Assembly (NCBI GenBank): GCA_903863935.1
Contig: CAIPDV010000099.1
Coordinates: 7,342 to 71,341, forward strand
Length of the DNA stretch: 64,000 nucleotides
Direction: 5' to 3'
Source: an uncultured Bacteroidota bacterium
GTDB taxonomy: Bacteria; Bacteroidota; Bacteroidia; JABEUT01
Shown here: piece after piece, positions 1,020-18,669 of the stretch
Position numbering within the stretch: the first letter of the stretch is position 1
Layout of the letters: the number at the start of each line of letters is the position of its first letter
Program-made: the position numbers and the translations under genes
Notes under the pieces: generated by a model
What the model was told of the DNA's origin: nothing
The model's database searches: none
Seen by the model: only the letters and a program-made list of their open reading frames with translations

Positions 1020-3962
1020 ATGGGAAAGTATTGGAGTACACTTATTGTAGCTATTGTTTTTTGCCTTGTAAATAAGCCCGGAAATGGGCAGACAAAACCG
1101 GCTTTTCAAAATCCACAGTGTGAATATTGGGCTGATTCAGTTTTAAAAACCTTATCTCCCGATGAAAGAATTGGCCAGCTATTTATGGTGGCTGCCTATT
1201 CAGATTCATCCGATAAACATAAAGATGACAAGGAAAAGTTGACAAAACTTCTGAATGAACAAAAAATTGGGGGCATTATTTTCTTTAAAGGCTCACCTTA
1301 TAAACAGGCAGAACTTTGTAACTATTACCAGTCGCTAGCCAATGTACCGCTTATGATAGGCATGGATGCAGAATGGGGTCTTGCCATGCGATTGGACAGC
1401 GTGCCTCGTTTTCCTTTTCAAATGACATTGGGAGCGATGAAAGACACAACACTTGTTTTTCAAATGGGGCAGGAAATTGCCAGTGAATGTAAACGTATGG
1501 GTGTTCAGGTTGATTTTGCTCCTGTGGTAGATATCAATGATAACCCTGATAATCCAGTAATAGGAATGCGTTCCTTCGGTGAAAATAAAATGCACGTAAC
1601 AGAAATGGGGCTGGCATATATGAATGGTTTGCAAAGCGAAAATGTACTTGCTTGCGCTAAGCATTTTCCTGGACATGGAGATACAAAAACAGATTCGCAC
1701 CTGTCCTTGCCTGTGGTGGATTACCCTCTCAGCAGGCTTGACACACTGGAGTTTTACCCATTTCAAAAAGTGTTTAATGCAGGTATGGGAAGCACGATGG
1801 TAGCACATCTTTATATACCCGCTCTTGATTCAACTCCGAACAGGGCATCAACACTTTCTCCAAAAATTGTTGATAGTATACTCAAAAAGCAAATGAATTT
1901 TCAAGGGCTGATATTTACCGATGCCTTGAATATGCAAGGCGTAGCAAAGTATTACAAACCCGGAGAAGTAGATTTAAAGGCACTTTTAGCAGGTAATGAT
2001 GTGCTTTTATTTTCAGAGAATGTAGGCAAAGCAATTAAAGAAATTAAAAAAGCGATTGAAGACAGTTTAATAACTCAGCAGGAAATTGATCTGCGCTGCA
2101 AGAAAATTTTGATGGTAAAAGCATGGACCGGGTTAAACCATTACAAACCTATTGTAATGAACAACCTAACAAAAGACCTTAATTCAATTCAGGCGGATTT
2201 AATAAATAGGAAGATTGCTGAGAAATCAATTACACTTCTTTCAAATAAAAATAATTTGATTCCGCTGAAACGTTTGGATACCCTTATTATGGCCTGTGTT
2301 ATGATAGGTGATACAGGAATGAATAGTTTTCAATCAAGATTGGATGGATATGCCCGAATGGATCATTTTAACCTGAGTATTCATAGCAAAGACACCGTTT
2401 TAGGAACCTTATTGCAAAAATTAAAAGCCTATAACCTAGTCATTATTGGAGTAAATCATACAAACAATCATCCGCAAGATACTTTTGGGTTAAAACATAT
2501 TGCAATTAATTTGCTCGATACTCTCGAAAAGACAAAAAATGTAATTCTTGATCTTTTCTCTGACCCTTATATTTTAAACTATCTGCCACAAGCAGAAAGG
2601 GCAAATGCTTTGATTATGTCTTATCAGAGTACATCATATTTGCAGGACTATTCAGCTCAATTGATTTTCGGTGGAATAGGAGCAGAGGGCTCGCTGTCTA
2701 TATCTGCTTCTGAAATGTATAAGCGTGGATTCGGGTTTTGTACACCGAAAACAAGATTAGAATATACCATTCCGGAAGAATTAGGAATTTCCTCCGATAA
2801 CCTCGCAACCATTGATACTATTGCTAACTATGGCATCCGTCAAAAAGCATATCCGGGTTGTGTTGTATTTGCTGCAAAAGATGGAAAAGTGTTTTATGAA
2901 AAAGCTTTCGGAACCCGCGATAATAAGGACTCATTGAAAGTAAAACTGGATGATGTGTATGATCTGGCATCCGTAACTAAGGTAGCTGCCACAACAGTTG
3001 CATTAATGAAGTTGTCAGATTCAAATAAGGTGAATGTGGACAGTACTCTTACCTCTATTTTACCCCAAGCAGCAAACTCCAATAAGAAAGATTTGCTGAT
3101 TAAAGATATCCTTACTCACCAATCTGGGCTTAAGGCCGACATTTGGTTTTATAAGGAAACCATGAATGGGGATAAGTTTAAAGATGGTTTTTACAGCACT
3201 ACTGCATCAGCAGAGTTTCCTGATCCGGTAGCAACAAATCTTTTTATCCGGAAGGATTATAAGGATACTATACTACATGAAATATTACAATCTCCACTTG
3301 GTAAAAAGGATTATAAATACAGCGATTTAGGGTTTATTCTGATGGGTATGGCAGTAAATCATGTTTCGGGTAGGTCACTTGATAAATATTTAGCGGAAGA
3401 AATATATCAACCAATGGGCTTACAAACTATGGTGTTCAATCCGATGTATAAATTACTCGTTTTAAAAACTGTACCAACCGAGTACGATAGTATATACCGC
3501 AAACAATTACTTTGGGGAAATGTGCATGACCAGTCAGCAGCTATTTTGGGCGGTGTTGCCGGAAATGCAGGACTATTCTCAGATGCCAGCGACCTTGGTT
3601 CATTAATGCAAATGTTATTGCAAAATGGCGTTTATGGCGGAGAAAGATATATTGACAGTAATACAGTTAAGAAATGGACATCTTGCATTTTTTGTAATCA
3701 AGGCAACCGACGAGGCTTAGGTTTCGATAAACCGGAGCCCGATAAAAGCAAAGAAAGCCCAACATGCCGTTCTGCATCGGAAGAAAGCTATGGACATTCT
3801 GGTTTTACTGGCACTTACGTGTGGGTTGATCCCAAATATGGAATTGTCTATGTTTTCCTTTCTAATCGGGTAGCATTCGGTTCTTCCGATAATAAACTTG
3901 TAAAATTGGGCACCCGCACCAATATTCAGCAGGTGATTTACAATGCTGTAGGAGCAAAATAA
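1020..3962 (+). CDS. Bifunctional-type hydrolase: N-terminal GH3 beta-N-acetylhexosaminidase (NagZ-like) domain fused to a C-terminal beta-lactamase-fold serine hydrolase domain
   Basis: Signal peptide present. GH3 catalytic region motif KHFPGHGDTKTDSHLSLP. C-terminal half carries S-x-x-K (SVTKVAAT), YSDLG and HSGFTGT motifs typical of class C beta-lactamase / PBP-related esterases. Confidence 0.8.
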   Translation: MGKYWSTLIVAIVFCLVNKPGNGQTKPAFQNPQCEYWADSVLKTLSPDERIGQLFMVAAYSDSSDKHKDDKEKLTKLLNEQKIGGIIFFKGSPYKQAELCNYYQSLANVPLMIGMDAEWGLAMRLDSVPRFPFQMTLGAMKDTTLVFQMGQEIASECKRMGVQVDFAPVVDINDNPDNPVIGMRSFGENKMHVTEMGLAYMNGLQSENVLACAKHFPGHGDTKTDSHLSLPVVDYPLSRLDTLEFYPFQKVFNAGMGSTMVAHLYIPALDSTPNRASTLSPKIVDSILKKQMNFQGLIFTDALNMQGVAKYYKPGEVDLKALLAGNDVLLFSENVGKAIKEIKKAIEDSLITQQEIDLRCKKILMVKAWTGLNHYKPIVMNNLTKDLNSIQADLINRKIAEKSITLLSNKNNLIPLKRLDTLIMACVMIGDTGMNSFQSRLDGYARMDHFNLSIHSKDTVLGTLLQKLKAYNLVIIGVNHTNNHPQDTFGLKHIAINLLDTLEKTKNVILDLFSDPYILNYLPQAERANALIMSYQSTSYLQDYSAQLIFGGIGAEGSLSISASEMYKRGFGFCTPKTRLEYTIPEELGISSDNLATIDTIANYGIRQKAYPGCVVFAAKDGKVFYEKAFGTRDNKDSLKVKLDDVYDLASVTKVAATTVALMKLSDSNKVNVDSTLTSILPQAANSNKKDLLIKDILTHQSGLKADIWFYKETMNGDKFKDGFYSTTASAEFPDPVATNLFIRKDYKDTILHEILQSPLGKKDYKYSDLGFILMGMAVNHVSGRSLDKYLAEEIYQPMGLQTMVFNPMYKLLVLKTVPTEYDSIYRKQLLWGNVHDQSAAILGGVAGNAGLFSDASDLGSLMQMLLQNGVYGGERYIDSNTVKKWTSCIFCNQGNRRGLGFDKPEPDKSKESPTCRSASEESYGHSGFTGTYVWVDPKYGIVYVFLSNRVAFGSSDNKLVKLGTRTNIQQVIYNAVGAK

Positions 3963-3978
3963 TCAGTACATTAGCCGT

Positions 3979-5949
3979 ATGAATTTCTTGAGGAATTTGA
4001 AAGAAATGCCTTTATCCCAAAAGGTATTTTATATAATAATGCTCCTATTCGGGTGTATATTTTTTACAACCCTAATAGGCAATCATTATTACTTCCGCAC
4101 CTATGCTTTTGATTACGGAGTTTACAATTTTGCATTTTGGGATTATGCACACTTCCATGTAAGTTTAATTCCATGCCTTGAAGTGGTCGGCAATTCACGA
4201 ATGACATTTATGCAAGATCATTTTTCATTAACATTCTGGTATTTTGTTCCTTTATTTTGGATTTTTAACTGGTTAACAGGATCATATACGCTACTTATTC
4301 TTTTAGCACTTTTCATTTTATGGAGTGGTTGGGCTACCTACAAATTAATAAAATTAAAGACCAATGATGAGTGGCTGGCAGTAATTTCAGTGTTGTATTA
4401 TTTTTTGTTACAAGGTCGATACAGTTCCTTTGCTTCAGACTGTAATATTTTAATAATAATATGTTGTTTTGTGCCTCTGTTTTTATTTTATTTCGAATTG
4501 AAGAAATATGTAGTTGCAGGTATTCTGTTAATTCTTCTTTTATTTTCCCGTGAAGATATGCCAATTTGGTTTATTTTCATTTTCCTTGTAATTGGCACGT
4601 GGCATTGGAAAGATAAGAGGGTTCTCGCACTTTGTGTGGGAGGTATTTTAGTTTGCATTGTTTACTTCATTGTTTTATTCAAGGCGTTTATTCCAATGCT
4701 CGAAACTCCAAATAAACCATATACATTATTTCAATATTCTGTATTAGGTAAAACTCCCACAGAAGCTTTGGGTTATTGTATAATGCACCCTATTGATACT
4801 TTTAAGCTATTATATATAAACCAATTCCACAACCCTGTTTTTAATAATGTAAAGGAAGAATTTTACCTTGTGTATCTTATATCAGGAGGATTTATTTTGT
4901 TTTTTCGACCCCAGTATTTTATTTGGTTTATTCCAGTTATTGCCCAAAAAGTATTTAATGATGATGAAGGTCGTTGGGGAATTAATGGTTATTATTCAAT
5001 TACCATAGTTACCCTTTTGCCAATTTCTGTTTTCCTTATTATTTCGAAATTTAAATTAAGATGGCTTCGGTATTCCTTTTCAATATTAGTTTGTATTATG
5101 GCTTTATCAGTTACTTGGTATAAAATGAATATTAATAATCGGGCTGTTCCCTGGGGAACTACAATAAAGGAGAATATGTTTGACCCAGCTTTTTTTCATC
5201 CTGATTATGATGCGGGTTTAATTCATAAGGTCCTTAAATTAATTCCTCCTGATGCAAAATTATCGGCTTCTTCATCCATTCTTCCACATGTGTCGCAGCG
5301 GAGTTATATTTATGAGTTTCCGGATTTTAAAGGGGCTGACTATATTGCGGCGTTTACTTTCAAAGATTATTATGTTTCGAGTGACAGTGCCTATTCAATG
5401 TTTTTAAATCATTTGATTTTTTATCCCGGTTGGGATATCGTCTCTTATATTCCTCCTTTTATTTTACTTAAGAAAAATAAAAATGGAACTTATGTAAATA
5501 AAGTTTTCGACAGTATTGAATGTGGTGCTGAATATATTGCTTCTGATAAAAAGCATCTAATTACATCTGATGGTGAATTTACAGACAATCCTGAAACCCG
5601 CGACAGTTCTGTAAAACGGAATGGATGTTATTCATGTAAAGTAAGCAGTAAGAATCAATTCGGATATACTTATCACGGTGTGAATTTTAAAACGGGAGAT
5701 TTTTTGAAAATAACGGTATGGAAATATCCTGCAATTAAAGATACCGGTAACCTGATTGTATCCTGGGGAAAAGACATTGGTAAATTTACTTTTAACGGGA
5801 TTAAAAAGGATTCTTTAGGTTGGGAAGAGTTGGAATTGTATATAATGGTGCCTAAAGTTCGCTCAGATTTTAAAGTATTTGTTATGAATGATAAGAGTAA
5901 ACCAATTTGGTTCGATGATTTAAAAATTGTGAAGTGCTCTGTGAAATGA
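3979..5949 (+). CDS. Polytopic membrane protein (DUF2079 / GT-C-like) with a C-terminal extracytoplasmic beta-rich domain
   Basis: At least 10 predicted TM helices in the first ~430 aa, then a soluble ~200-aa tail ending ...KPIWFDDLKIVKCSVK. The tail resembles the C-terminal domain of the 707-aa protein at 9027..11150 (…AYFDDLSITIYP). Confidence 0.5.
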   Translation: MNFLRNLKEMPLSQKVFYIIMLLFGCIFFTTLIGNHYYFRTYAFDYGVYNFAFWDYAHFHVSLIPCLEVVGNSRMTFMQDHFSLTFWYFVPLFWIFNWLTGSYTLLILLALFILWSGWATYKLIKLKTNDEWLAVISVLYYFLLQGRYSSFASDCNILIIICCFVPLFLFYFELKKYVVAGILLILLLFSREDMPIWFIFIFLVIGTWHWKDKRVLALCVGGILVCIVYFIVLFKAFIPMLETPNKPYTLFQYSVLGKTPTEALGYCIMHPIDTFKLLYINQFHNPVFNNVKEEFYLVYLISGGFILFFRPQYFIWFIPVIAQKVFNDDEGRWGINGYYSITIVTLLPISVFLIISKFKLRWLRYSFSILVCIMALSVTWYKMNINNRAVPWGTTIKENMFDPAFFHPDYDAGLIHKVLKLIPPDAKLSASSSILPHVSQRSYIYEFPDFKGADYIAAFTFKDYYVSSDSAYSMFLNHLIFYPGWDIVSYIPPFILLKKNKNGTYVNKVFDSIECGAEYIASDKKHLITSDGEFTDNPETRDSSVKRNGCYSCKVSSKNQFGYTYHGVNFKTGDFLKITVWKYPAIKDTGNLIVSWGKDIGKFTFNGIKKDSLGWEELELYIMVPKVRSDFKVFVMNDKSKPIWFDDLKIVKCSVK

Positions 5950-7419
5950 TTACTTCTTTTTGAAGATCCAAACACCATAATCCATTCCACCAAGAACAGT
6001 AAATTTTTCCTTGGGATCGAACCTACGAAGCAAAGTAAGATTAGGATTTTTCAATAAAGTATCTAATTTAATTTTGCCTTCATTCGGGCCATAGTGGCTA
6101 TCCCAGATCATAATACTTCCTTGCGGCATATTTAAGTCGGGTCGTTGTGAATTCATTCCCCATAGTTCACCCCTTTTTGCAGTATCATAGGGGTCAATAT
6201 TAAGGCTGGGAGTAATATAAGGGGCCAGGTAGAATATCTTTTTATTTGCATCAGGGGTTTGCTTCAACCAGTCAGTGGCATCTTTAATAACCACTTCTTC
6301 TGCACCAAGTTTAAATGGTATTTTGTACCATAAATCATAAGGGGCGTAAAGAACAGCAATAACAAAAACAGTCGCAATCCATGTTTTAACTTTAGTAAAT
6401 TTAAATACATCAGGAATCAAATTAATAAACTGTAAGCCTCTTAATGCAATAATTGAGGCGAGTGGTATGAGTGGTGCCATGTATCGCAACAATCCTAGTG
6501 TAGGGAAGAAGCCTGTAGCCCAAATTATAGTGTGCCCTACGAATATGTTAAACACGCAACCATACACCAACAAAACCTCCTCTGTCCTATACGCATTTTC
6601 TGTGCCGGTTGCAACTCTTCTGTTTAAATATTCACCTCCAATAAACCATAGAACACCGGCGATAATCAGAATTAAAAGTCCTAATCCAACAATATCATGG
6701 GCAGGTGCTATATAACTTATGAGTGAACCTTTAACATTACCATAGGCATGTGAGTTGCTTTCTGAATAAGGGTTTTGGTCTAATAACCAGTGAAGATTCT
6801 TATAGTAAATTGCTCCAATAAGCGTAATTATAATAGTCCCTACCGGAAGTAGAAAATTAGCCAAGTATTTCCTTTTCAGAATATAATAAAAGATAAACAG
6901 TGGTAATACAAAAATAAACTCGGCCCGTACGAATGGCAGAAAGGAAAATAGTATTGCACTTAAATAATACCGTTCATTCATGATGAGCCAAATACATCCA
7001 ATCAGCATCATGGAAAACATTGGTTCTGTTAATCCGGAATTTACAACGGAAAAGTAAATCGGTGCAGAAAATGTAAAAATAATAGCAAGATAAGGGAAGG
7101 GAATTGCCAGTTTTTCCGCTATTCTATAGGCAAAGTAAGATGCTCCAAGCCCGCAGAGAATATTGTATAGAGTTATTCCTTTTAATCCGAATTGTGCAAA
7201 AGGAGATGAAAGCATGGTAAAGAATGGTTTTCCCCAATCATCAACAAACAATCGGTGGTGGTGCCATGAATAGCGTGATATCAGATAGTGTGCTACCCCG
7301 TCTCCAGTGTCATATGTAGAAGAAGAAAAGAACAGGATAATACAAGCATAAACAAATAAGATTGCCAGTATTGAAAAGGCAATGAACTTTGTATTGGTTG
7401 CGTTTTTTATTAATTGCAT
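5950..7419 (-). CDS. GT-C fold membrane glycosyltransferase (PMT/ArnT-like, GT39/GT83-type)
   Basis: Multi-TM N-terminal region. The first extracytoplasmic loop has HHRLFVDDWGKPFF, resembling the PMT-family VFDEVHFGKF loop motif. Soluble C-terminal domain. Separated by 2 bp from the next gene, so a tight operon. Confidence 0.55.
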   Translation of the reverse strand: MQLIKNATNTKFIAFSILAILFVYACIILFFSSSTYDTGDGVAHYLISRYSWHHHRLFVDDWGKPFFTMLSSPFAQFGLKGITLYNILCGLGASYFAYRIAEKLAIPFPYLAIIFTFSAPIYFSVVNSGLTEPMFSMMLIGCIWLIMNERYYLSAILFSFLPFVRAEFIFVLPLFIFYYILKRKYLANFLLPVGTIIITLIGAIYYKNLHWLLDQNPYSESNSHAYGNVKGSLISYIAPAHDIVGLGLLILIIAGVLWFIGGEYLNRRVATGTENAYRTEEVLLVYGCVFNIFVGHTIIWATGFFPTLGLLRYMAPLIPLASIIALRGLQFINLIPDVFKFTKVKTWIATVFVIAVLYAPYDLWYKIPFKLGAEEVVIKDATDWLKQTPDANKKIFYLAPYITPSLNIDPYDTAKRGELWGMNSQRPDLNMPQGSIMIWDSHYGPNEGKIKLDTLLKNPNLTLLRRFDPKEKFTVLGGMDYGVWIFKKK

Positions 7420-7421
7420 GG

Positions 7422-9026
7422 TTAGTTTAAGTTTCTTAAATCATAAATAGATACATTTTGATAATTGCCTATCTTGTATTTTAAATATGGTTTAATCCAG
7501 GAATAATCAAGATAGGACGGTTTTGAAACAATCAGATATTTTGCACCAAGTCGTATAAACTCATTAATTCTTCCCTCATTTGCAAAGCCGCCATAACCAA
7601 AGTCGTCAAACCCTTTTTGATCCATAAGGTATAGAGTAATATTAATGCTTTGGTCAGGAATGCTTATTACTTTATCGGTTCTTGAAATTCCAAGCCTCCT
7701 TAAATAAGGAGTTATCGTTTCAAAGGCCTTGGTTTCATTAACGTAAGTGAAATGGTACCAGTTCCAGAAATCGGAATTTCGATCATCTATGATAAAATTA
7801 TATTTTACGATAGGGGTGGAAGTTGAATACCTGATATTTGTTTCTACAGCGCAGTAGTATATATTGAATAGTAAGAACAGGCTAAAAATAAATTTTAGTT
7901 TTACTGAGCTGAAAATGGCAGGGTAGTTATCCTTAAGGAAAATTAAGAATGCCACCAAGGTTGCAGGAACAAAAATTAAAAGATTAATCAGGTAATAGTC
8001 ATGTACATTCAGAACCTGGAACCACAGCACTAAATAGAGGATTATTCCTGTAAAGAGCATAGTTAAAAACCAAAGATAAAACTTGCTGATCTTTTTATGG
8101 TTGATCAGAAGAGATACGAATAGCAGAAGTGTTAGAAACAGTATAGGCATACTGAAATATTGCGGAAGTAAAAGGGTGTATAATTTAACAAGCGTGTCAT
8201 GAATCGCACTTTTGTCAAGTTTCCATAAAGGAAGAATATCTGTACTGAATAAACCTGCGTTATGAATTTGGTTGTAATGTATTGAATATAAAGTCCATGA
8301 AAACATAAGCAGTCCCGCAGCCAGTATGGTTAATACTTGTATTAAAGGACTAGTGAAAAGTTTGTTGTTTTTGTTTTTTCGAAAAGTGATGATCTCATAA
8401 AACAAAATAAATATGAGAGGAATGAAAGAAATAAGCCCCGTTATTTTTGTAAGGCCTGCTAACAAGAAAATGAAAATGGAAACATAAAAAAAGAGCATAC
8501 GTTTGGTTTTATAATAACGGACAAAATAGTACCATCCCATTAATGCAAAACTTAAAGCGGGAACATCCATTAAAAAATTATTGGAATAAACCGCAAAAAT
8601 TGGTGATGTGAAAAGTAAAATTGAAATAAGTAGTGCCCATGCTCCGTCACTTGTCATTTCTTTTACCAGTAAGAATAAAGCGTACAAACCTGAAAAGGCA
8701 ATAAAAGTATCAAGCATCCGGTAAATGAATTCATGGTAACCAAATATTTTCCATAGTATAGCAACTAAATAATAAATTAAAGGACATTCACTTGTGCTGG
8801 TCATTCCATTGCCGGAAGGCCCCAGCATATGAACTGAAGGACTGAGAAAGTGCATTCCTTCCTGGTAGTAATTCAGTGCAATAGAAAGACAATCGGTCTG
8901 TCTCCATTGGTGAATAGAGTAAGGGCGCATCCAAAAAATATTTTGATAGGAATATAAGAAGGCCACGCCAATAAGTACAATGAAAAAAAGTAAATCCCAT
9001 TTTTTGGGAGTTTTGAATAGTGCCAT
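7422..9026 (-). CDS. GT-C-like polytopic membrane glycosyltransferase (ArnT/PMT-like)
   Basis: About 12 TM helices. Basic/aromatic first loop (RPYSIHQWRQTDCLSIALNYYQEG) resembles the ArnT-type loop. C-terminal soluble region. Directly abuts the flanking GT-C genes. Confidence 0.5.
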   Translation of the reverse strand: MALFKTPKKWDLLFFIVLIGVAFLYSYQNIFWMRPYSIHQWRQTDCLSIALNYYQEGMHFLSPSVHMLGPSGNGMTSTSECPLIYYLVAILWKIFGYHEFIYRMLDTFIAFSGLYALFLLVKEMTSDGAWALLISILLFTSPIFAVYSNNFLMDVPALSFALMGWYYFVRYYKTKRMLFFYVSIFIFLLAGLTKITGLISFIPLIFILFYEIITFRKNKNNKLFTSPLIQVLTILAAGLLMFSWTLYSIHYNQIHNAGLFSTDILPLWKLDKSAIHDTLVKLYTLLLPQYFSMPILFLTLLLFVSLLINHKKISKFYLWFLTMLFTGIILYLVLWFQVLNVHDYYLINLLIFVPATLVAFLIFLKDNYPAIFSSVKLKFIFSLFLLFNIYYCAVETNIRYSTSTPIVKYNFIIDDRNSDFWNWYHFTYVNETKAFETITPYLRRLGISRTDKVISIPDQSINITLYLMDQKGFDDFGYGGFANEGRINEFIRLGAKYLIVSKPSYLDYSWIKPYLKYKIGNYQNVSIYDLRNLN

Positions 9027-11150
9027 CTAATTTCGATCGGTTTTAGTTTGGGTAAAATTAGAATTATTCAAATTCATAGGATAAATTGTTATTGATAAGT
9101 CATCGAAATACGCATACCCATTTCCATAATAGAAAAGGTATAAATTAATGTTACCATCATTAAAACTTGAAGGAACTAAGCATTTGTATTCTATCTGTTT
9201 CCATCCATGTGAATCAGAATCAATTACTGCGTGGCCAAAGGCATAAAAATCACCGTTGCTTTTTGATGTGAAAGCAATTCCTCCCCATCCATCATCCGAT
9301 TTCCGCCATATCTTCGTTACTATTAAACTACCCCGTTTTGAATGTATTGCGTAATTTAAGGCGAATTGATTATCATGATTCATCAGCACTGAATTATTAC
9401 GGGAATGATGTTCTTTAGTGGTAAGTGAATTGATGCCGCCGAGAGTGTCTTTTCCATCTGATGAAATAGATTTTGATTTATCTGAAGTTAATCTTTCAAG
9501 GTCAAAGTTTATTTCAACCGGATTGTCCATCATTGTTTTGGCCATCGTTTGGTTGCCATCCAGTTCATATATAAATTCATTTGACTCTTTGCGAGCATAA
9601 ACTAACTTTTTTTGTGCAATAGTGTCTTTACCCCAAATACAAAATTCTTTCAAGAAGGAGGCTCTGCCAGCAGAATCCTGCTCATTAAAGTATGCAATTA
9701 TTTTCTTGTGTTTTGAAAAAAGCTCGGGCATATAAAAAATATCGTCCCAATGTGAAACACTTTTACTTGGATGTATAGTTCGGTAGGTGTTGGGGTAAAT
9801 ACGTTTCAAAAACTCCCAATATTTATTATTGAAATTCCCTGCATAGGCAACACCTAATTCAATGGCAGGTTCAATTCTTGAACTAGCAAAACCTGCCGTA
9901 ATTACTATAGGGGTGTCACCGTATTTGTCAATAAAATCAGCCGTTTCAGAAGAAACCGCTTTCGGAAGATTAAAGAAAAAGCCTTTTAAATCTGGAATTA
10001 CAAGGTAAGCAGAAAAAAGGTAAATTATAGCAGGGAAAGCAAATTTTAGCTGTGGTGTTTTCACGTTAATAAAATCACGTAATAAACCAGCAGATCCGGC
10101 AATTATTAATGGCAGGCAAAGCTGAATTGGAATAAGGTAGTGGAATGAGTAGTGTTTTGCAACAAGTATTATAAGAATTAATGATGATGCAAAAATGCCA
10201 GTTAGAAGGCGCAAGTAAATGCTATTTGCAGGTTGAATTTGCTTGCGTTTTATAAATCCAGTTATAAGTGAAATGATCATAAGCACATAGATTGATGTGA
10301 AAAACATATCCTTAGAAAATATTTTACCCAAGTTAGTTGTGAACTCTGATGAGTTTGCAAAGCCCTTTTCTCCTTGTCCATAACTTCCTTTGTGTGTGGC
10401 AATGTTGGTGAGCCAGTCAACTATTTGACTCATAACTGGAATTGCAGGAGAAATGAATACAAGCAAGAATAAAACTAAATATTGTAATCTACTCCGTGTT
10501 CCAGGCAATAAGAATACAACTAGAAAGAACAAAGGAAAGCAAGTGTACTTGCATGTTATTAAGAATGCGGAAAAAGAGGCGTAAATTAATAATTGCTTAA
10601 TACCTGTTTTTCTTTGCGATGATTTATCTGAATAAATAAGATTGCAAAATAAGTAGGCAATAAAAGGTACTCCAAATAATAAAATAAATGATTCAGGTGA
10701 TGGAGCAGAAGAAGTAAGATATTCTTTTGCAATAAGAGGAGTTAATTGAAAAAGCAATGCCAAAGGAAGATTAGCAGTTCTTTTCAATACATAATACCCC
10801 GTATATAATGTAATTAAAACCCAGAGTAGGGAAATGGCGACACATATTGCGTAAAGGTAACTCTCTGGATGCAGCAAAAGATCCTGATAGAGTGGAATAC
10901 TATGGTTGAAAAAATGCTTAACATATATAACTAATGCGCAAAAATACTGCACCGGTATCCCTGGATTATCAATATAATGGATGGATAATTTTCCTGCTCC
11001 AATGTTCATGCCGGTAAACAAATAAATGTAAACCGGATCTGCACAAAGCGTGTAAAATGGCCTCCAGTTAATAAAAAATACTCCTGAAAAAAATAAATAA
11101 ACTACCGGAAGTATTAATAGCAAAAAATACTTCCTGTTAATTGAATTCAT
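9027..11150 (-). CDS. GT-C-like polytopic membrane glycosyltransferase with a C-terminal beta-sandwich (carbohydrate-binding-like) domain
   Basis: About 12 TM helices in the N-terminal 400 aa. The ~250-aa soluble tail ends NLYLFYYGNGYAYFDDLSITIYP. Confidence 0.5.
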   Translation of the reverse strand: MNSINRKYFLLLILPVVYLFFSGVFFINWRPFYTLCADPVYIYLFTGMNIGAGKLSIHYIDNPGIPVQYFCALVIYVKHFFNHSIPLYQDLLLHPESYLYAICVAISLLWVLITLYTGYYVLKRTANLPLALLFQLTPLIAKEYLTSSAPSPESFILLFGVPFIAYLFCNLIYSDKSSQRKTGIKQLLIYASFSAFLITCKYTCFPLFFLVVFLLPGTRSRLQYLVLFLLVFISPAIPVMSQIVDWLTNIATHKGSYGQGEKGFANSSEFTTNLGKIFSKDMFFTSIYVLMIISLITGFIKRKQIQPANSIYLRLLTGIFASSLILIILVAKHYSFHYLIPIQLCLPLIIAGSAGLLRDFINVKTPQLKFAFPAIIYLFSAYLVIPDLKGFFFNLPKAVSSETADFIDKYGDTPIVITAGFASSRIEPAIELGVAYAGNFNNKYWEFLKRIYPNTYRTIHPSKSVSHWDDIFYMPELFSKHKKIIAYFNEQDSAGRASFLKEFCIWGKDTIAQKKLVYARKESNEFIYELDGNQTMAKTMMDNPVEINFDLERLTSDKSKSISSDGKDTLGGINSLTTKEHHSRNNSVLMNHDNQFALNYAIHSKRGSLIVTKIWRKSDDGWGGIAFTSKSNGDFYAFGHAVIDSDSHGWKQIEYKCLVPSSFNDGNINLYLFYYGNGYAYFDDLSITIYPMNLNNSNFTQTKTDRN

Positions 11151-11284
11151 AGCTATGCATCGTTAACAAAATAAAAGATATGGTACTTAAATATTAAAAG
11201 AAATTATGGTTTTCAAATTAATCAAAAACAAAAATAACAAGAATTATCACGTAATTCCATTTAGTTCTTGTTAATGGTTTTTGG

Positions 11285-12418
11285 TTAGGGCATATGTTTG
11301 TTTAAAATTTTTAAAGCAGAATCGGGAAAACCCCAAGCAAGGTCATTTAACTTTGCTTCGGTTGATTCAACAATAATTATATCATTTTTTTTAATTGATT
11401 CACCAAGATTAAAAGTATTTATCCAATATTGGGGTTTATTATCCGAAGGGAAAACCTGAGCATAATAATAACATAGGTCTCCGGATGTAAAATTGGCCCA
11501 AAAATTATAATGCTTTTCGAGTATTAAGATATAACTGTCGCCAACAACGAGCGTTGAATTTTTTTTAACTGAAGTATCATTCGGGTTTGAAGTGTGCGGA
11601 TGTCCAAGTTTATCTTGTTTCATTGTAAACAATAAATTCAGATCATCCTCCAATTCAATCTCATCATCATTGGCATCATCAAAGGTTACATTGTTTTTCC
11701 ATAGTGTATGTGGCAATTTTTCGTGTCTTAGTTTTTCAAGCATTGTCATAATTGAATCACCAGCAATACATGCCCCATAGGCTGTCCAATGACTTCCATT
11801 CTTGTAAAACAAAGGATATTTTGATTTCTCTTTGTTCTCAATAAAATACTTGTTGAAATCAATATAATTCAACCCCTCAGTTTTTAAAAGTTTTTTACAA
11901 ACGTCGTAGTTTATTGAATCAGCAACCTTGTATCTCTCCGGAACATCTTCTGGATTGAATAAGGTTTTTGAAGGTGCAATAACAAGTAGCAGGGTTTTAT
12001 TCATTTTTGCAAAAGTGTCTTGAAGAATCTTTAATTTGTCAAGCCGGGCTTTTAGTTTGATTGTTCCAATAAAATTCCATCCTGCAAACGATTCCATATA
12101 CCATTCTGGGAATAGGTCGTCGTTGTTGCCCATAATAAAGTCGGTTGAATTTATTTTGCTAAATAAGCTAAAATCAGCTTGGTTCCTGCTGCGAATAAAT
12201 AGATTTCGTAATCCAAATGTATCACTTAAATATTTTTCTTTATGTGTTTGATATTTTCCTGAAAACCAACCATCAGTTGAAAAAAATGTATCCGCTACTT
12301 GTGTATATGCACCCGCCAGGCGTTTTATTTTAAATAAATGGAAATTACTTTGCAGCAATGGCAAAAATAGAAAACTTAATAAGACAATAAAGATTAGTTT
12401 CAGAAATGGCTTTTTCAT
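11285..12418 (-). CDS. AlgX/AlgJ/PatB-like SGNH-fold O-acyltransferase partner protein (paralogue 1 of 3)
   Basis: N-terminal signal anchor. Conserved GWFSGKYQ…FGLR…RNQ.DFSLF block and a GSHWT.YGA (DxHW-type) motif, plus a GDS(Y/F) motif. Sits in the same operon as the MBOAT gene. Confidence 0.55.
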   Translation of the reverse strand: MKKPFLKLIFIVLLSFLFLPLLQSNFHLFKIKRLAGAYTQVADTFFSTDGWFSGKYQTHKEKYLSDTFGLRNLFIRSRNQADFSLFSKINSTDFIMGNNDDLFPEWYMESFAGWNFIGTIKLKARLDKLKILQDTFAKMNKTLLLVIAPSKTLFNPEDVPERYKVADSINYDVCKKLLKTEGLNYIDFNKYFIENKEKSKYPLFYKNGSHWTAYGACIAGDSIMTMLEKLRHEKLPHTLWKNNVTFDDANDDEIELEDDLNLLFTMKQDKLGHPHTSNPNDTSVKKNSTLVVGDSYILILEKHYNFWANFTSGDLCYYYAQVFPSDNKPQYWINTFNLGESIKKNDIIIVESTEAKLNDLAWGFPDSALKILNKHMP

Positions 12419-12432
12419 TTATTGGCGTAGGG

Positions 12433-13566
12433 TTAATTCATCACGTTTTTGTTCTTGCGTAATATTTTACTTACTTGCGCCGGGAAATCAAAACCCAATT
12501 TGGTAATATTGGCTTCGGTAGCTAAAAGTATAAAAACATCATTCTTTTTTAGTTCACTCTCTATATTCAGGTTATCATGTGTATCCTTATTACCTTTTGG
12601 GTAAACGTGCCAGGAATAATACCAAAAAATACCATTAGAGAAATAATCCCAGAAACTAAAATGATCACGCAAAGCCCAGAAAAAACTATCCCCCACAACC
12701 ATTGCAGATAAGTTGTTTTTGGTTGAATCTATATGTTCTAAAGGTTCAGGGTGGCCAAAAGGTTCGTGCTTGAAAGAAAATACTAGATTCATATCATTTT
12801 CCATTTCTAATTCATCTCCACTTGGTCTCTCTTGTATTATTTGGTTTTTCCAGGGTAAATGCTGCATTTTTATATTTCTTAAATTTTCAATTTTCGAAAT
12901 GATAGAATCTCCTGCTAAGTAAGCTCCGTATGATGTCCAGTGGCTGGCATATTTATAAAATAATGGGGCAAGGGCTTTTCCTTTAAGCGATAAAAAATAA
13001 GAGTTGAAGTCAATATAGTTTAATCCATCCATTTTCAACGTGTTTAAACTTATGAGGTAGTTAGACGAATCTCCTTTTCTAACCGAATCTGGCAGGTCTT
13101 CCTGGAAATAATTGTCCTTTGAGGGGGCAATAACAATAAGCAATGTTTTGTTGTGTTCGGCAAGAGAATCCTGAATCGCTTTAAGTATACCAAGCTTTTC
13201 TTTTAGTGCTTTTGAGCCTATAAAGTCTCTTCCTGAATAGGAATTAAAGTACCAGCCCCAGAAAATATCATTATTTTTCCCGATTACGAAATCATCGGCA
13301 TGTACTTGCTGAAAGAGTGAAAAATCAATCTGATTTCTTATCCTGATAAATATACTCCTCAGTCCGAACACATCGTGAAAATATTTGTCTTTTTTTATCT
13401 GGTATTTCCCTGAAAACCAGCCGCCAGATGTAAGTACAGTATCTCCCGAAAGTGTGAACATTCCTGATAAAGCCTTACAGTTTATTAAATTGAAGCGATA
13501 TTGAATGGCAGGAAATAGTAAGCAACCAAAAAGAAAAATAAATAGTGATTTGCGAAAAAGGTTCAT
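12433..13566 (-). CDS. AlgX/AlgJ/PatB-like SGNH-fold O-acyltransferase partner protein (paralogue 2 of 3)
   Basis: Same architecture and motifs as paralogue 1 (GWFSGKYQIKKDKY…, ASHWTSYGA, VVGDSFF). Diverged sequence, so not an assembly duplicate. Confidence 0.55.
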   Translation of the reverse strand: MNLFRKSLFIFLFGCLLFPAIQYRFNLINCKALSGMFTLSGDTVLTSGGWFSGKYQIKKDKYFHDVFGLRSIFIRIRNQIDFSLFQQVHADDFVIGKNNDIFWGWYFNSYSGRDFIGSKALKEKLGILKAIQDSLAEHNKTLLIVIAPSKDNYFQEDLPDSVRKGDSSNYLISLNTLKMDGLNYIDFNSYFLSLKGKALAPLFYKYASHWTSYGAYLAGDSIISKIENLRNIKMQHLPWKNQIIQERPSGDELEMENDMNLVFSFKHEPFGHPEPLEHIDSTKNNLSAMVVGDSFFWALRDHFSFWDYFSNGIFWYYSWHVYPKGNKDTHDNLNIESELKKNDVFILLATEANITKLGFDFPAQVSKILRKNKNVMN

Positions 13567-13567
13567 G

Positions 13568-14713
13568 CTAGTTTAATTGAGCGGTATTGGGCACTATTCC
13601 AAAAACCTTGCATGCAGCGTCAGCAAAACCCCAACCAATTTTACTAAGATTTATTTCTGTGGATTCTACCATGATCAGGTCTGCTTTGTTTATTGCATCG
13701 CGCAAATCCAGGCTATCTATATCAGCAGACTTATCTGCGCCCAAAGTGTAAACTGTTTTATAGTAATAGCAGAATTTAAAGGAAGAAAAACTGGACATAA
13801 GGTCATAATGTGCTTCAAGGTTAAGGATGTAACTATCTCCAATTATTAAAATAGAAGGTCTTTTTTGCTTTAGATTAATTGTGTCTTTGATCTGCGGGTG
13901 AGCGAGCATCTCGGTTGGAAAGCCAGAAAAAATATTTAGTTCGTTTGATAATTCAAGTTCATCTCCTTCAGCTTTACTTATAGTAACATTATTTCTCCAT
14001 GGGTAATGAGGGATTTTTATTGCACTTAAATATTCTAAAGCACCAATAATAGAATCGCCTGCAACACAAGCCCCATAATAACTCCAATGGCTTCCGTAAG
14101 CAGGAAATAGCGGGTAAGGACAAGTTTGCTTTAGTTTAATGAAATAATTTTCGAAATCAATGTGTACCAATCCTTTTTGTTTTGCTTTTTTCTCAAAAAC
14201 TTCATAATTGGTAGAATCGCCCTTTTTCGTCCCTTCGGGAAGGTTTTCCGGAGCATATATATCTTTCGATGGAGAGAAAACTACTAGCAAAACCTTGTTT
14301 CGTTTTGCTAAGGTATCTTGTAATAACTTAAATTCAGAAATGATATGATTTATTTTTGGGCTGCCAATAAAATCAAGCCCTTTATAAGTATCAATATACC
14401 AAGTGTTAAACAGAAAATGATTCTTGCCTTCAACTACATCCTGCGCATGAAATTGGTGGTAAAAACTAAAGTCAACCTGGTTTCGGCAGCGAATAAAAGC
14501 ACTTCTTAATTCAAAGTGATCGTTCAGATATTTTTCCCTATGTGTCTGATATTTGCCCGAAAACCAGCCGTTTAATGAGAAAGTGGTATCGTCGTTTAGT
14601 ACAAAGGTTCCGTCCAATGGCTTTTCGTGAAATACTGGAAAACTTCGCTGGAATAGAGACAAAGACAAGAAGACCAGGATAAAAATAAAAAGTATTTTAG
14701 GGATACTGAACAT
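13568..14713 (-). CDS. AlgX/AlgJ/PatB-like SGNH-fold O-acyltransferase partner protein (paralogue 3 of 3)
   Basis: Same architecture (GWFSGKYQTHREKY…, GSHWSYYGA, IIGDSYI). Separated by 1 bp from paralogue 2. Confidence 0.55.
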   Translation of the reverse strand: MFSIPKILFIFILVFLSLSLFQRSFPVFHEKPLDGTFVLNDDTTFSLNGWFSGKYQTHREKYLNDHFELRSAFIRCRNQVDFSFYHQFHAQDVVEGKNHFLFNTWYIDTYKGLDFIGSPKINHIISEFKLLQDTLAKRNKVLLVVFSPSKDIYAPENLPEGTKKGDSTNYEVFEKKAKQKGLVHIDFENYFIKLKQTCPYPLFPAYGSHWSYYGACVAGDSIIGALEYLSAIKIPHYPWRNNVTISKAEGDELELSNELNIFSGFPTEMLAHPQIKDTINLKQKRPSILIIGDSYILNLEAHYDLMSSFSSFKFCYYYKTVYTLGADKSADIDSLDLRDAINKADLIMVESTEINLSKIGWGFADAACKVFGIVPNTAQLN

Positions 14714-14728
14714 GCTTTCTTAAAATTC

Positions 14729-16159
14729 TTAAAACCTAAAATAGATAAATGGATTGAAGCCGCTGCCTGCAATATTCCCGACGGATAAAATAAATAGTAT
14801 CAGTGCAAGGAAAGCAGTTACCAGATGTCTTAAATTAGAGTACTCATGGGTGAAAACTCCATCCTGTATCTTCTGTGTCCATTTAAAAAAGGTGAAGAAT
14901 GCAAAAAAAGCAGCAATTATTAGCAGGGTATAAAATGCAGGGTCGGGTATAAACTTATATTCTTTTGGGTTTGAAATGAACATTCGCTTTATAAACTGAA
15001 TTGCATCACTAAATTTTTCAACCCTGAAAAATACCCAACCAATAATTACTATCAGGAAGGTTATAAAGGTTCTGAAAAATTTCCCGATCTTATCATATAT
15101 CTTTAATAAAAATGCTCTTTCAAGGGCTAGAAATGTACCATGATAGGCACCCCAGAAAACAAAATTCCATGAGGCACCATGCCACAAACCTGAAACAAGA
15201 AACACAAACCAAAGGTTGAAGTAGAGACGGAGTTTACTGTCAACACGGTTACCACCCAGTGGGATATATAGATAGTTTTTCATCCAACGCCCAAGCGACA
15301 TGTGCCATCTTCTCCAAAATTCAGTAATGCTTTGTGATGTATATGGGTTTTCGAAATTCTCAGGGAACTTAAATCCAATCATTCTGGCTAGGCCAATAGC
15401 CATGTCTGAGTATCCTGAAAAGTCAAAATAGATTTGGAAAGTATAGGCTAAAATGCCCATCCAAGCTGCGTATGCAGAAAGGTCTGCTGTACTCGTTTTG
15501 AAAACTGCATCTGCCAAAGCACCCATTTGGTTAGCAATTAATACCTTTTTAGCAAGTCCGATAATAAAGCGGTAGAAGCCTAGCAGGCGGTTCTCAGTAG
15601 TTTCATTTGCCGAACGGTCTGTTATCTGGTCTGCCAATTCATGATACCTGATGATTGGTCCTGCAATTAGTTTAGGGAATAGAATTATATACAGCTGATA
15701 ATTCCAGAAGTTATCAAGGGGTTTGTGCTCTCCCCGATATACATCTACTACATAAGTAATTGTTTCAAATGTATAGAAGGAAATACCAAGAGGAAGCACC
15801 AATTTAGTCCATCCTAAAGGATGCACATGGAAAATATGTGTTATAAATACGTCTACATTTTCTATAAAAAAACCTGAATATTTAAAATAGAATAGTAACC
15901 CGAGGTTCATGCAAACCGACACAGTGAGTAAGATTCTTCGGTAAAGCCTTGTCTGGGTATTATACATCCACTTAACAAGAAAGAAGTCTACCAGTGTAGT
16001 ACCTAGAATTACAAAAATAAATTTGGGTGCCCCCCAACTATAAAAGAAAATACTAAAAACCAGAACTACTACATTCTTCAGGAATTTAGGGGTGATATAA
16101 TAGACAAGTAAAAATACAGGTAAAAAATAAATGAGAAAAAGTATGCTGCTGAATATCAT
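14729..16159 (-). CDS. MBOAT family membrane-bound O-acyltransferase (AlgI/DltB/PatA-like)
   Basis: Polytopic protein with the MBOAT signature FWRRWHMSLGRWMKNYLYIPLGGNR and a conserved His region. Confidence 0.85.
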   Translation of the reverse strand: MIFSSILFLIYFLPVFLLVYYITPKFLKNVVVLVFSIFFYSWGAPKFIFVILGTTLVDFFLVKWMYNTQTRLYRRILLTVSVCMNLGLLFYFKYSGFFIENVDVFITHIFHVHPLGWTKLVLPLGISFYTFETITYVVDVYRGEHKPLDNFWNYQLYIILFPKLIAGPIIRYHELADQITDRSANETTENRLLGFYRFIIGLAKKVLIANQMGALADAVFKTSTADLSAYAAWMGILAYTFQIYFDFSGYSDMAIGLARMIGFKFPENFENPYTSQSITEFWRRWHMSLGRWMKNYLYIPLGGNRVDSKLRLYFNLWFVFLVSGLWHGASWNFVFWGAYHGTFLALERAFLLKIYDKIGKFFRTFITFLIVIIGWVFFRVEKFSDAIQFIKRMFISNPKEYKFIPDPAFYTLLIIAAFFAFFTFFKWTQKIQDGVFTHEYSNLRHLVTAFLALILFILSVGNIAGSGFNPFIYFRF

Positions 16160-16239
16160 ATAAGTTTAATAGATTAAATACAATAATAACATTTAAATGC
16201 TAATCATTATAGTATGAAATAGTAATAGAAACAATGCAA

Positions 16240-16938
16240 TTACATCACTTTTTTCCCGGCTACAAAGTCTTTCAGGTAGAACGGCTCATAATAGGCAACA
16301 TCAGTAAACTCTTTTTTAGCAAAGGATTCTTCTGCTAGTAAAATCATGTTTTGGGCAGATGCATGAATTTCATCCACCCAAATACAATTTGTATTTTCAA
16401 GAGGAAAAAGCTTTTTAAGTTTAGGCATTCCATCTCCTCCGAATGCTATAGTTGTGGTTTTTAGAATTTCACTAAATGAATTTTCATTAAGTATTTTTGC
16501 TTCTACCGGAAGGATCTCGTTGCCTTCACAAGAATAAATGCCTGTGTATACTTCCAATCTACGCGCATCTACAAGGGCGCAATAAAATATATCTTTCCTT
16601 CTAATAATTGATGCTAATGAAAGTGCCATTGCCTTAAGTGTCGGAACCGCAATAAGTGGTTTATTGAGTGAATAACAAAGCCCTTTAGCTGTTGATGTTC
16701 CAATTCTTAGACCTGTATATGATCCCGGACCAGTGCCTATGGCAATAGCATCCAATGTTTTCAAGTCATGGTGTTTGGTAATACTTGCAATAAATACAGC
16801 AAGTTTTTCAGCATGTGCATTTGGGATTAAGGATTCCTCCGAATTCACAATTTTCCCATCAATGGCAAGGGCCACAGAGCAAACAGCAGTTGATGTTTCT
16901 ATATTCAGTATTGTTGCCATTAATAAGCTATTGGCCAT
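16240..16938 (-). CDS. tsaB: tRNA threonylcarbamoyladenosine biosynthesis protein TsaB (YeaZ)
   Basis: The N-terminal ILNIETSTAVCSVAL and IAIGTGPGSYTGLRIGTSTAKGL motifs are characteristic of the TsaB/YeaZ family. Confidence 0.85.
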   Translation of the reverse strand: MANSLLMATILNIETSTAVCSVALAIDGKIVNSEESLIPNAHAEKLAVFIASITKHHDLKTLDAIAIGTGPGSYTGLRIGTSTAKGLCYSLNKPLIAVPTLKAMALSLASIIRRKDIFYCALVDARRLEVYTGIYSCEGNEILPVEAKILNENSFSEILKTTTIAFGGDGMPKLKKLFPLENTNCIWVDEIHASAQNMILLAEESFAKKEFTDVAYYEPFYLKDFVAGKKVM

Positions 16939-17136
16939 GCCTATAAGCTATTAGCCATTTTACAAAGGTATAATTCCCGGATAAACTGAAAAAAAATTAA
17001 GCTGGTATATTGTATTCACAAATAATTAGTAATATTGCATCGCGTTCCCCGCATTTATTTCCAAAGACATATTATTTCCCGCTAGTATTTTCCCCTCCCT
17101 TCTTAGCAATCAAATTATTTATTTAAAAACATATTT

Positions 17137-18669
17137 ATGTACGACATTTTACAACTCAATGGCAAATCCCTAATACAATTAAGGGAAATTGCCAAGGAAT
17201 TAAAGATCCACCGCGGAGATCATCTGAAAAAACACGACCTTGTAACTAAGATACTGGATGCCCAACAATCCCTTGAAAAGCCCGTTGAGGAAATAACACC
17301 AAATACAGATATTGTTTCACAACCAGTGGAAGAAACTGAAATTGTTCCGGTTGTAAAGACTGAGAGTATTGAGTTTGAAGCCCCTATGGAACCATTATCT
17401 GATTTGAATTCAGATGAGCCCAAAATTTCAAATCCTGTGGAAGTGGCACCAAACGTAACATCTACAGCATCTAATGACGCTCCGCTGGATTTTGGCTTTC
17501 AGGAAAAAGTGCAACACGAACAACCTAAACAACGCGAACCCGCTTACAATTTCGACAACATAGTTCAGGCTGAAGGCGTGCTTGAAATTATCCCCGAAGG
17601 CTACGGATTCCTCCGTTCAGCCGATTATAACTACCTAAACTCTCCTGATGACGTTTACGTTTCGCAAAACCAAATCAGGTTGTTTGGATTAAAGACAGGT
17701 GATACCATTCTCGGATATATACGTCCTCCCAAGGAAGGTGAAAAGTATTTCCCGCTTTCTAAAATAGAACTTATCAATGGTAAGGCACCTGACTTAGTGC
17801 GTGACCGTGTACCATTTGACTTTTTGACACCGTTATTTCCATACGAGAAATTTAATTTGGCTGCACATCCACAGGCTACATTATCGAGCCGTGTGGTAGA
17901 TATGTTTACCCCTATTGGTAAAGGCCAGCGCGGCTTGATAGTTTCCCAGCCCAAAACCGGTAAAACCGTATTGCTAAAGGAAATTGCCAATGCCATTGCA
18001 TCCAATCACCCGGAAGCATACTTGCTGATATTACTGATTGATGAGCGTCCCGAGGAGGTTACCGATATGGCGCGCAGCGTAAAAGCTGAGGTAGTATCAT
18101 CTACTTTCGATGAGCCTGCAGAACGCCATGTACGCATTGCCAACATCGTTCTCGAAAAAGCCAAGCGTATGGTAGAATGCGGACACGATGTGGTTATCCT
18201 GCTCGATTCAATTACCCGCCTTGCACGGGCTTATAATACTGTTTCTCCCGCGTCTGGTAAGGTTTTATCGGGTGGGGTAGAGGCTAATGCTTTACAAAAA
18301 CCAAAACGTTTCTTCGGTGCTGCCCGCAAAATTGAAAACGGCGGCTCACTCACTATCCTAGCTACAGCCCTTATCGATACAGGCTCTAAGATGGACGAGG
18401 TTATTTTTGAAGAGTTTAAAGGTACTGGTAACATGGAGTTACAACTCGACCGCCGCCTCTCCAACAAACGTATTTACCCAGCTATCGATATTGTAGCTTC
18501 CAGCACGCGTCGTGATGATTTGCTTGTGGATAAGGAAACCCTACAACGCCTGTGGATACTGCGTAATCACCTTACGGATATGACTCCAATCGAAGCTATG
18601 GAATTCCTCCGTGAAAGACTTCAGAGAACCAAATCGAACGAGGAGTTTATGCTCACCATGAACGGCTAG
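17137..18669 (+). CDS. rho: Transcription termination factor Rho (Bacteroidota type with extended N-terminal insertion)
   Basis: N-terminal Rho_N ([18 protein letters not shown]), a long low-complexity insert, an RNA-binding OB region, Walker [21 protein letters not shown], and a conserved C-terminus. Confidence 0.9.

Follow-up and report, generated by a model that had tools for sequence, protein, structure and literature searches.

A tandem triplet of AlgX-type SGNH proteins encoded beside a single MBOAT acyltransferase in an uncultured member of the Bacteroidia

Introduction

Pairs of an MBOAT acyltransferase and an SGNH protein determine how peptidoglycan, teichoic acids, alginate and cellulose are acylated, which in turn affects lysozyme resistance, immune evasion and biofilm properties. 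The acyl-shuttle mechanism was worked out recently, for one-to-one pairs only: the function of the FxYxxF motif has been shown for PatA and DltX, and in Campylobacter jejuni PatA the Tyr of this motif auto-acetylates from acetyl-CoA, after which the acetylated peptide donates to PatB (PMC12148441). The roles of the residues in the catalytic sites of AlgJ, AlgX and PatB1 have also been described (PMC4148444, PMC9487903). The present analysis concerns 64,000 nucleotides of contig CAIPDV010000099.1 from an uncultured Bacteroidota bacterium (the window, meaning this whole stretch), in which a single MBOAT gene is followed by three tandem genes for SGNH proteins, here called copies A, B and C. The original prediction, made from the sequence of the window, set the three copies against known systems with one or two partners. 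Several SGNH genes beside an MBOAT are not new in themselves, the precedents being AlgJ with AlgX and the ape1b-ape1c-pat cluster of Bacteroides and Porphyromonas (PMC1199599).

The triplet is genuine and conserved, and it represents an expansion, restricted to one lineage, of the SGNH partner in a system whose kind is already known. The locus is read here as an MBOAT-SGNH module for the O-acylation of an envelope glycan, in which the partner has been expanded from one to three and the three copies act as parallel enzymes on different acceptor sugars or positions. This reading is held with somewhat more confidence than doubt.

Results

The MBOAT gene and the three genes that follow it

The MBOAT acyltransferase (476 amino acids; 14729..16159, minus strand) is the single membrane acyl translocator of the module and matches both the Pfam MBOAT family (E 4.7e-35, 121.9 bits) and MBOAT_2, with a sub-threshold match only to the DltB model TIGR04091. 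It contains the conserved His motifs WRRWH286MSL and GLWH327G and ends in ...NPFIYFRF, so that its C-terminal hexapeptide FIYFRF (14732..14749, minus strand, as read from the sequence) is an FxYxxF acyl-shuttle motif whose Tyr is the presumed acyl carrier. All 47 of the 47 full-length MBOATs of related loci end in FIY[FY][RQ]F. The locus has the His motifs and the hexapeptide as well as an SGNH partner that is encoded beside the MBOAT and conserved with it.

Copy A (381 amino acids; 13568..14713; Pfam ALGX E 8.8e-14), an AlgX/AlgJ-type protein with an N-terminal anchor, adjoins the MBOAT gene and is followed by copy B (377 amino acids; 12433..13566; ALGX E 8.8e-16) and copy C (377 amino acids; 11285..12418; ALGX E 3.4e-16), all on the minus strand. 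The His and Ser motifs, likewise on the minus strand, lie at 14084-14095 (GSHW) and 13829-13840 (GDSY) in A, at 12937-12948 (ASHW) and 12682-12693 (GDSF) in B, and at 11786-11797 (GSHW) and 11531-11542 (GDSY) in C. The open reading frames together with the ALGX and MBOAT matches confirm three tandem AlgX-type paralogues of 377-381 amino acids beside one MBOAT, as originally predicted, and the motifs quoted in that prediction are present in the copies, except that copy A reads FELR and not FGLR. Among the window open reading frames, the gaps between MBOAT and A, A and B, and B and C are 15, 1 and 14 nucleotides. A scan of 5800-17200 for sigma-70 promoters and terminators, which does not model Bacteroidota promoters, gave a site count no higher than in shuffled sequence, and the operon structure is therefore read from gene spacing alone.

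The copies belong to one AlgX-type family

In a Pfam scan the three copies scored 52.2-60.2 bits against ALGX (PF16822; cut-off 26.5), with E-values from 9e-14 to 3e-16 and a match spanning mainly the N-terminal half of the model. A family profile built from 88 sequences matched AlgJ (2e-10), Bacillus cereus PatB1 (5e-8) and AlgX (9e-7). The AlphaFold2 (AF2) model of copy C, with a predicted local distance difference test (pLDDT) score of 94.2, was compared with the PDB using Foldseek and retrieved AlgJ (1.4e-10), AlgX (3.5e-09), PatB1 (4e-07) and the DHHW protein 4nzk (1.7e-04), beyond which the next match came only at an E-value of about 0.5. The order of the catalytic blocks is permuted in all three copies, with H209/H210 ahead of S294/S295, and the same order is found in PatB1, from H202 to S337; the canonical SGNH order of Gram-negative PatB, Ape and DltD, with the Ser block first and DxxH last, is reversed in them. 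The earlier description of the copies as PatB-like thus holds for B. cereus PatB1, which is of the circularly permuted DHHW/AlgX-like type, and not for Gram-negative PatB. An NCBIfam scan of A, B and C gave no meaningful match, and no match to the DltD or GDSL lipase families rose above noise in the Pfam and NCBIfam scans of the copies. None of the three copies matched the Pfam DHHW model, ALGX being the sole family reported at E <= 0.1, and the TDHHW motif of the DHHW family is not present in the copies, which read (Y/N)(G/A)SHW.

The copies share a common architecture, in which a helix (residues 2-26) leads into a conserved juxtamembrane block (residues 29-92), with no added domain in any of them. 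The helix is seen in the model of copy C, and the N-termini of all three copies are hydrophobic with no obvious cleavage site; this would fit an AlgJ-like signal anchor. A helical C-terminal extension of approximately 50 amino acids, with the motif ...EKA..N.ISVDSM.T.DA.W..., is found in most family members, including all three L054 copies, and is missing from all three copies of the window and of L052 (compared with L054, L002 and P0016), apparently through parallel loss. Copies A, B and C are AlgX-type SGNH proteins of one family and not of three different families. The possibility raised in the original prediction, that they are single-copy orthologues of three families, does not hold: all three belong to the same well-supported clade of one family, and 47 of the 50 species-level loci have a single copy of that family.

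Rarity of more than one partner

The 50 loci come from species-representative genomes, nearly all of them metagenome-assembled genomes (MAGs) of Bacteroidota. One MBOAT and one SGNH gene are present in 47 of these 50 species-level loci, only L025, L037 and L048 having more, and the MBOAT gene adjoins the SGNH homologue in 48 of the loci that hold one. When all open reading frames of 55 loci were clustered, no other family occurred in more than 8 loci; given that the MBOAT and SGNH genes are the sole conserved neighbours, the two form a self-contained two-gene module.

At the locus syntenic with that of the window, L012, L002, L058 and L057 have one SGNH gene each, as against three in L052, L054 and the window itself. 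The set of membrane-protein genes that separates the SGNH genes from the DUF2079 gene varies among syntenic loci too: L054 (13040-16045) has two tandem copies of a 489-amino-acid membrane protein and an inverted PMT_2 gene, and in L057 (13433-16483) their place is taken by a DUF6311 protein and a GT2 enzyme. Multi-partner arrangements arose more than once, as indicated by a related MAG (JBKQUY01) with two separate MBOAT-SGNH modules (L003 and L012), by the order SGNH-MBOAT-SGNH in L037, where the two SGNH genes are from different clades, by the two SGNH genes after the MBOAT in L025, and by the several MBOAT/SGNH genes in a row in L048.

Age and maintenance of the triplet

The pairwise amino-acid identity of A, B and C is 41-46%, rising to 64-68% in the GxHW block and 52-55% in the juxtamembrane block, and falling to 28-38% in residues 226-287 and at the C-terminus. 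Their nucleotide identity is 52-57%, and the synonymous divergence (dS) is saturated. An identical triplet is present in a separate ENA assembly (L056), the A/B junction is spanned by a Logan contig (L001), and two more lineages carry orthologous triplets, namely L052/L053 (about 80% amino-acid identity) and L054/L055. The triplet lineages have in common the synteny of rho, tsaB, MBOAT, three SGNH genes, membrane proteins, DUF2079 and a GH3/beta-lactamase fusion. Both an assembly artefact and a recent duplication are ruled out by the independent assemblies, the nucleotide identity and the saturated dS.

In a neighbour-joining tree the window and L052 copies pair at 100% bootstrap. Copy A has orthologues in L052, L054 and P0008 and copy B in L052 and P0007, the A, B and C groups receiving bootstraps of 76%, 100% and only 37%, respectively. 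These groups and the saturated dS bear out the earlier claim of an old duplication, and the three copies are old duplications within a small clade of uncultured Bacteroidia. A clade of A, B and C together with the single-copy proteins of syntenic relatives has a bootstrap of 90-99%. A clade of A, B and C that excludes those single-copy relatives has one of 4%, because of which the order of duplication and loss is uncertain and a single lineage-specific burst of duplication is not claimed; the safest statement is that one family has undergone birth-and-death evolution in a variable island, predating the sampled species splits.

The DNA identity of window positions 1356-22459 to L052 is mosaic, at 100% over 1356-9074, 65-88% over 9075-15270, 95-100% over 15271-17369 and about 85% beyond, the low-identity stretch 9075-15270 comprising the gene for a 707-amino-acid protein, the three SGNH genes and the 3' end of the MBOAT gene. 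This mosaic reflects either an exchange of the acyltransferase/GT-C cassette among strains by recombination or a metagenome assembly that is chimeric.

The ratio of non-synonymous to synonymous substitution (dN/dS), measured against the L052 orthologues, is 0.070 for A, 0.121 for B and 0.047 for C. This range is close to the 0.092 of the MBOAT, and all three copies are maintained genes under purifying selection. It is conceivable that they are nevertheless redundant or dosage copies, or that they form a hetero-oligomer with some purely structural subunits, with no difference in acceptor specificity. The catalytic and family-invariant residues are all common to the three copies, very few sites are fixed within orthologue groups and differ between them, and other families of the island duplicate too, for example the 489-amino-acid protein in L054, all of which would be in keeping with redundancy. 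However, redundancy is not expected to last until copies have diverged to 41-46% identity and saturated dS, nor should redundant copies each remain under strong purifying selection and each have its own orthologues in sister lineages, and little probability is given to this explanation.

Catalytic residues

In the profile alignment the His of GxHW aligns with AlgJ H192, AlgX H176 and PatB1 H202, and the Ser of GDS(Y/F) ('vvgDSyyw'), present in all three copies, aligns with S337 of the PatB1 KDS motif. The triad Asp (AlgJ D190, AlgX D174, PatB1 D200) aligns gap-free to Gly in copies A and C and to Ala in copy B. The Ser-His-Asp triad of the original prediction is thus not borne out in full: His and Ser are conserved, and at the third position Gly is found throughout the subfamily. 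Across 136 family members the DxHW Asp position is Gly in 132, with the His kept in 135, the Trp in 136 and the Asp and Ser of the Asp-Ser pair in 135 and 136, respectively. An exhaustive search yielded 14,031 clusters at E <= 1e-3 and 2,369 at E <= 1e-30 (50%-identity clusters); among 148 representatives, these being the new entries within its top 150, the position is Gly in 135, Ser in 4 and Asp in none. The near-invariant residues of the family that are kept in all three copies are L34, G36, Q57, R76, N79, Q80, K151, D187, H210, W211, D221, N261, D294 and S295. As to the block III Tyr that substitutes for the oxyanion-hole Asn, a conserved Y318 (94%) lies downstream of the Ser, in a region that no AlgJ/AlgX alignment reached. 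In the B lineage the otherwise near-invariant Gly that precedes the His is relaxed, to Ala in the window and in L052 and to Asp in P0007, where DxHW is restored.

Given that Gly replaces Asp across the whole subfamily, the absence of the Asp is not decay specific to the window copies, and these are not pseudo-enzymes by the standard of their own family; the lack of catalytic residues that the original prediction had named as a danger to itself is, by that standard, not encountered, since His and Ser are kept. The enzymes may use a Ser-His dyad, dyads being functional in CE2-type SGNH enzymes (PMC9487903), or may recruit an acid from elsewhere, with D187, D221, D/E253, D/E255 and D294 as candidates. 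It could be argued that the copies are instead catalytically dead and serve as binding or scaffold proteins, given that the triad Asp is missing and that AlgJ D193A and the Asp variants of AlgX and PatB1 lose function (PMC4148444, PMC9487903). This is hardly credible for three reasons: the Gly is itself near-invariant in the subfamily, as are the His, the Trp and the Asp-Ser pair; the genes are strictly linked to an MBOAT that retains the shuttle motif; and the CE2-type enzymes work with a dyad.

Differences between the copies

Paralogue-specific changes are found at position 104, which is N, W and P in A, B and C and E in the rest of the family; at YW297-298, a conserved aromatic pair beside the nucleophile that is replaced by IL in copies A and C of the window and L052; at W316, which is C in the same copies and C, S or D across their orthologue groups; and at G363, which is D in B. 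These substitutions may be taken to fit, and do not prove, a divergence in acceptor recognition. A mapping of the specificity surface from group-fixed sites was abandoned, since six sites are too few.

The loss of the aromatic pair close to the nucleophile raises the possibility of a division between writers and erasers, in which one or two of the copies are now O-acyl esterases that trim the modification, as Ape1 does beside PatB. Clusters for O-acetyl-peptidoglycan do place SGNH transferases and esterases beside one MBOAT, as in ape1b-ape1c-pat of Bacteroides (PMC1199599), and both AlgJ and AlgX show esterase activity in vitro (PMC4148444). Such a division is nevertheless decidedly unlikely, given that a review of these enzymes (PMC9487903) describes no esterase-only member of the AlgX/DHHW type and that a free esterase would have no need of the MBOAT-proximal anchor and the juxtamembrane block that all copies retain.

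Glycosyltransferase context

Downstream of copy C on the minus strand lie the genes of three membrane proteins. The first (9027..11150) encodes a polytopic protein of 707 amino acids with no Pfam or PDB sequence match, whose AF2 model (pLDDT 83.5) suggests a GT-C-fold glycosyltransferase with a C-terminal beta-sandwich resembling a carbohydrate-binding module (CBM). Its Foldseek matches are modest (E 3e-4 to 5e-3, TM 0.25-0.49) and comprise ALG9, EmbC/EmbB, DPY19, PglB, ArnT and Pmt4, the beta-sandwich matching CBMs in the same modest E-value range; its placement in the GT-C fold comes from structure prediction and Foldseek only. The second (7422..9026) encodes a membrane glycosyltransferase of 534 amino acids and the PMT/PMT_2 (GT-C) family, with 34.9 bits against Pfam PMT (cut-off 22.7) and 34.6 bits against PMT_2 (cut-off 26.1). 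The third (5950..7419) encodes a polytopic protein of 489 amino acids with no PDB sequence match, which is probably a glycopolymer-formation protein by its weak NCBIfam match to NF046093, 'cell surface glycopolymer formation protein' (31 bits, below the cut-off of 150).

The convergent gene at 3979..5949 on the plus strand encodes a DUF2079 membrane protein of 656 amino acids (PF09852, precomputed Pfam match) and forms the conserved far flank of the island, being kept in L012, L052, L054 and L057. Beyond it, at 1020-3962 on the plus strand, a 980-amino-acid fusion of GH3 glycoside hydrolase and beta-lactamase-family domains is the outer flank, conserved in all syntenic relatives. Between these conserved flanks the island is variable, and besides SGNH genes it gains and loses periplasmic glycosyltransferases of GT-C type. 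A C-terminal domain of about 160 amino acids, ending in ...FDDL(S/K)I, is common to the 707-amino-acid and DUF2079 proteins (BLASTP 5e-8) and corresponds in the model to the CBM-like beta-sandwich. Neither of these two proteins nor the 489-amino-acid protein showed significant similarity to the PMT_2 protein by BLASTP or by hhalign with shallow alignments. No AlgF-like gene is found at the locus in the list of window open reading frames. Elsewhere in the window, a 1495-amino-acid open reading frame with a TTG start (34459-38946, plus strand) and one of 617 amino acids (24605-26458, minus strand) have no Pfam match at E <= 0.001.

The neighbouring GT-C-type membrane proteins suggest, as the acceptor, a glycan that is elaborated on the periplasmic side of the membrane. 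An attempt to draw the acceptor from conserved neighbours was dropped, given that the clustering of open reading frames from 55 loci gives no context signal beyond MBOAT and SGNH. The Bacteroides cluster for peptidoglycan O-acetylation uses a different SGNH family, which argues weakly against peptidoglycan as the acceptor.

Discussion

By analogy with PatA and DltX, the MBOAT would pick up an acyl group on the cytoplasmic side of the membrane, most probably acetyl donated by acetyl-CoA, and load it onto the Tyr of its extracytoplasmic FIYFRF tail. Each copy, held at the membrane by its N-terminal helix and juxtamembrane segment, could dock on the MBOAT directly and would receive the acyl group on the Ser of GDS(Y/F), with the His of GxHW as the base; these residues are assigned by homology to S337 and H202 of PatB1, from which the chemistry is presumed. 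Each copy would then acylate a hydroxyl group on an extracytoplasmic glycan, presumably at an acceptor site of its own.

Alginate acetylation requires two AlgX-family proteins whose roles are not redundant, and an acyl relay from AlgI to AlgJ to AlgX has been proposed for it (PMC4148444, PMC10641220). It is therefore possible that the three copies, likewise diverged and all retained, also act in series, one being loaded by the MBOAT and only the last touching the glycan. This scenario is unlikely for two reasons: first, the alginate partners differ in architecture, AlgJ being anchored and AlgX being soluble, CBM-bearing and AlgK-bound, and they need the adaptor AlgF. Second, the window copies have the same anchor and juxtamembrane block with no added domain, and no AlgF-like gene accompanies them. 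Parallel enzymes are favoured over a relay because all copies keep the anchor and the family-wide juxtamembrane block, which is read as MBOAT-proximal. Three acceptor specificities or regiospecificities, as the original prediction had proposed, are compatible with all findings and are the preferred reading.

Several observations weigh against three parallel enzymes with different acceptors. The triad Asp of AlgJ, AlgX and PatB1 is replaced in every copy and, since this canonical residue is missing, conservation alone would speak for catalytic competence. Only six sites are fixed within the orthologue groups and yet differ between them, and the bootstrap of 4% gives A, B and C no clade apart from their single-copy relatives. 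Furthermore, in the wider family the module is not regularly accompanied by the GT-C neighbours, and these are linked to the acyltransferases by adjacency only.

A bolder proposal would make the locus an island for a combinatorial 'acylation code', in which three co-anchored writers, gained and lost among close relatives, share one MBOAT tail and decorate, each at a different sugar or position, a glycan built at the periplasmic face by the neighbouring GT-C proteins, and in which the whole subfamily catalyses without the triad Asp, by a Ser-His dyad or with an acid from another loop. This is put forward tentatively, as possible but doubtful. If true, the Asp-less catalysis of the subfamily would be without a described counterpart among AlgX-type enzymes. 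The expansion is limited to a small clade, and the organism is an uncultured MAG. Nevertheless, three identically built partners competing for one MBOAT tail would provide a natural test of partner choice and of how acceptor specificity is encoded, and a large uncharacterised subfamily, mainly of Bacteroidota, with Gly in place of the catalytic Asp bears on both the annotation and the mechanism of the family.

Comparison with known systems

The ape1b-ape1c-pat cluster of Bacteroides and Porphyromonas resembles the locus in phylum and in having one MBOAT beside two tandem SGNH paralogues; however, Ape1b and Ape1c have the canonical block order with Dx(V/T)H, are encoded upstream of pat, are predicted esterases and belong to a different SGNH family (PMC1199599). 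PatA/PatB of Neisseria and Campylobacter, which act on peptidoglycan, and DltB/DltX/DltD share with the window the passage of the acyl group from the Tyr shuttle of a C-terminal FxYxxF motif, carried by the MBOAT or, for DltB, borrowed from DltX, to the Ser of an SGNH partner (PMC12148441); the window MBOAT ends in FIYFRF. PatB and DltD differ in their canonical block order, with the Ser first and DxxH last and not the permuted AlgX type, and in there being one transferase partner in each system.

Closer is PatA1/PatB1 of B. cereus, a DHHW-family system for O-acetylation of a secondary cell wall polysaccharide, in which an MBOAT is likewise followed by an AlgX-like permuted SGNH protein. The profile alignment with PatB1 runs from the juxtamembrane region through the His block and is found again at the (K/G)DS nucleophile, and the folds match; the differences are the TDHHW motif with its catalytic D200 (PMC9487903), the single partner per MBOAT and the Gram-positive setting. 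The alginate system of Pseudomonas, AlgI-AlgJ-AlgF-AlgX, also combines a single MBOAT with two AlgX-family proteins of the circularly permuted SGNH type; AlgJ shares the N-terminal anchor of the window copies, and AlgJ and AlgX are their best matches in sequence and in fold. In alginate, two partners of differing architecture act with AlgF inside an operon for polysaccharide synthesis and export and have DxHW with a catalytic Asp, whereas in the window three partners of identical architecture, with GxHW and no AlgF, stand beside one MBOAT and have GT-C proteins rather than a synthase as their neighbours.

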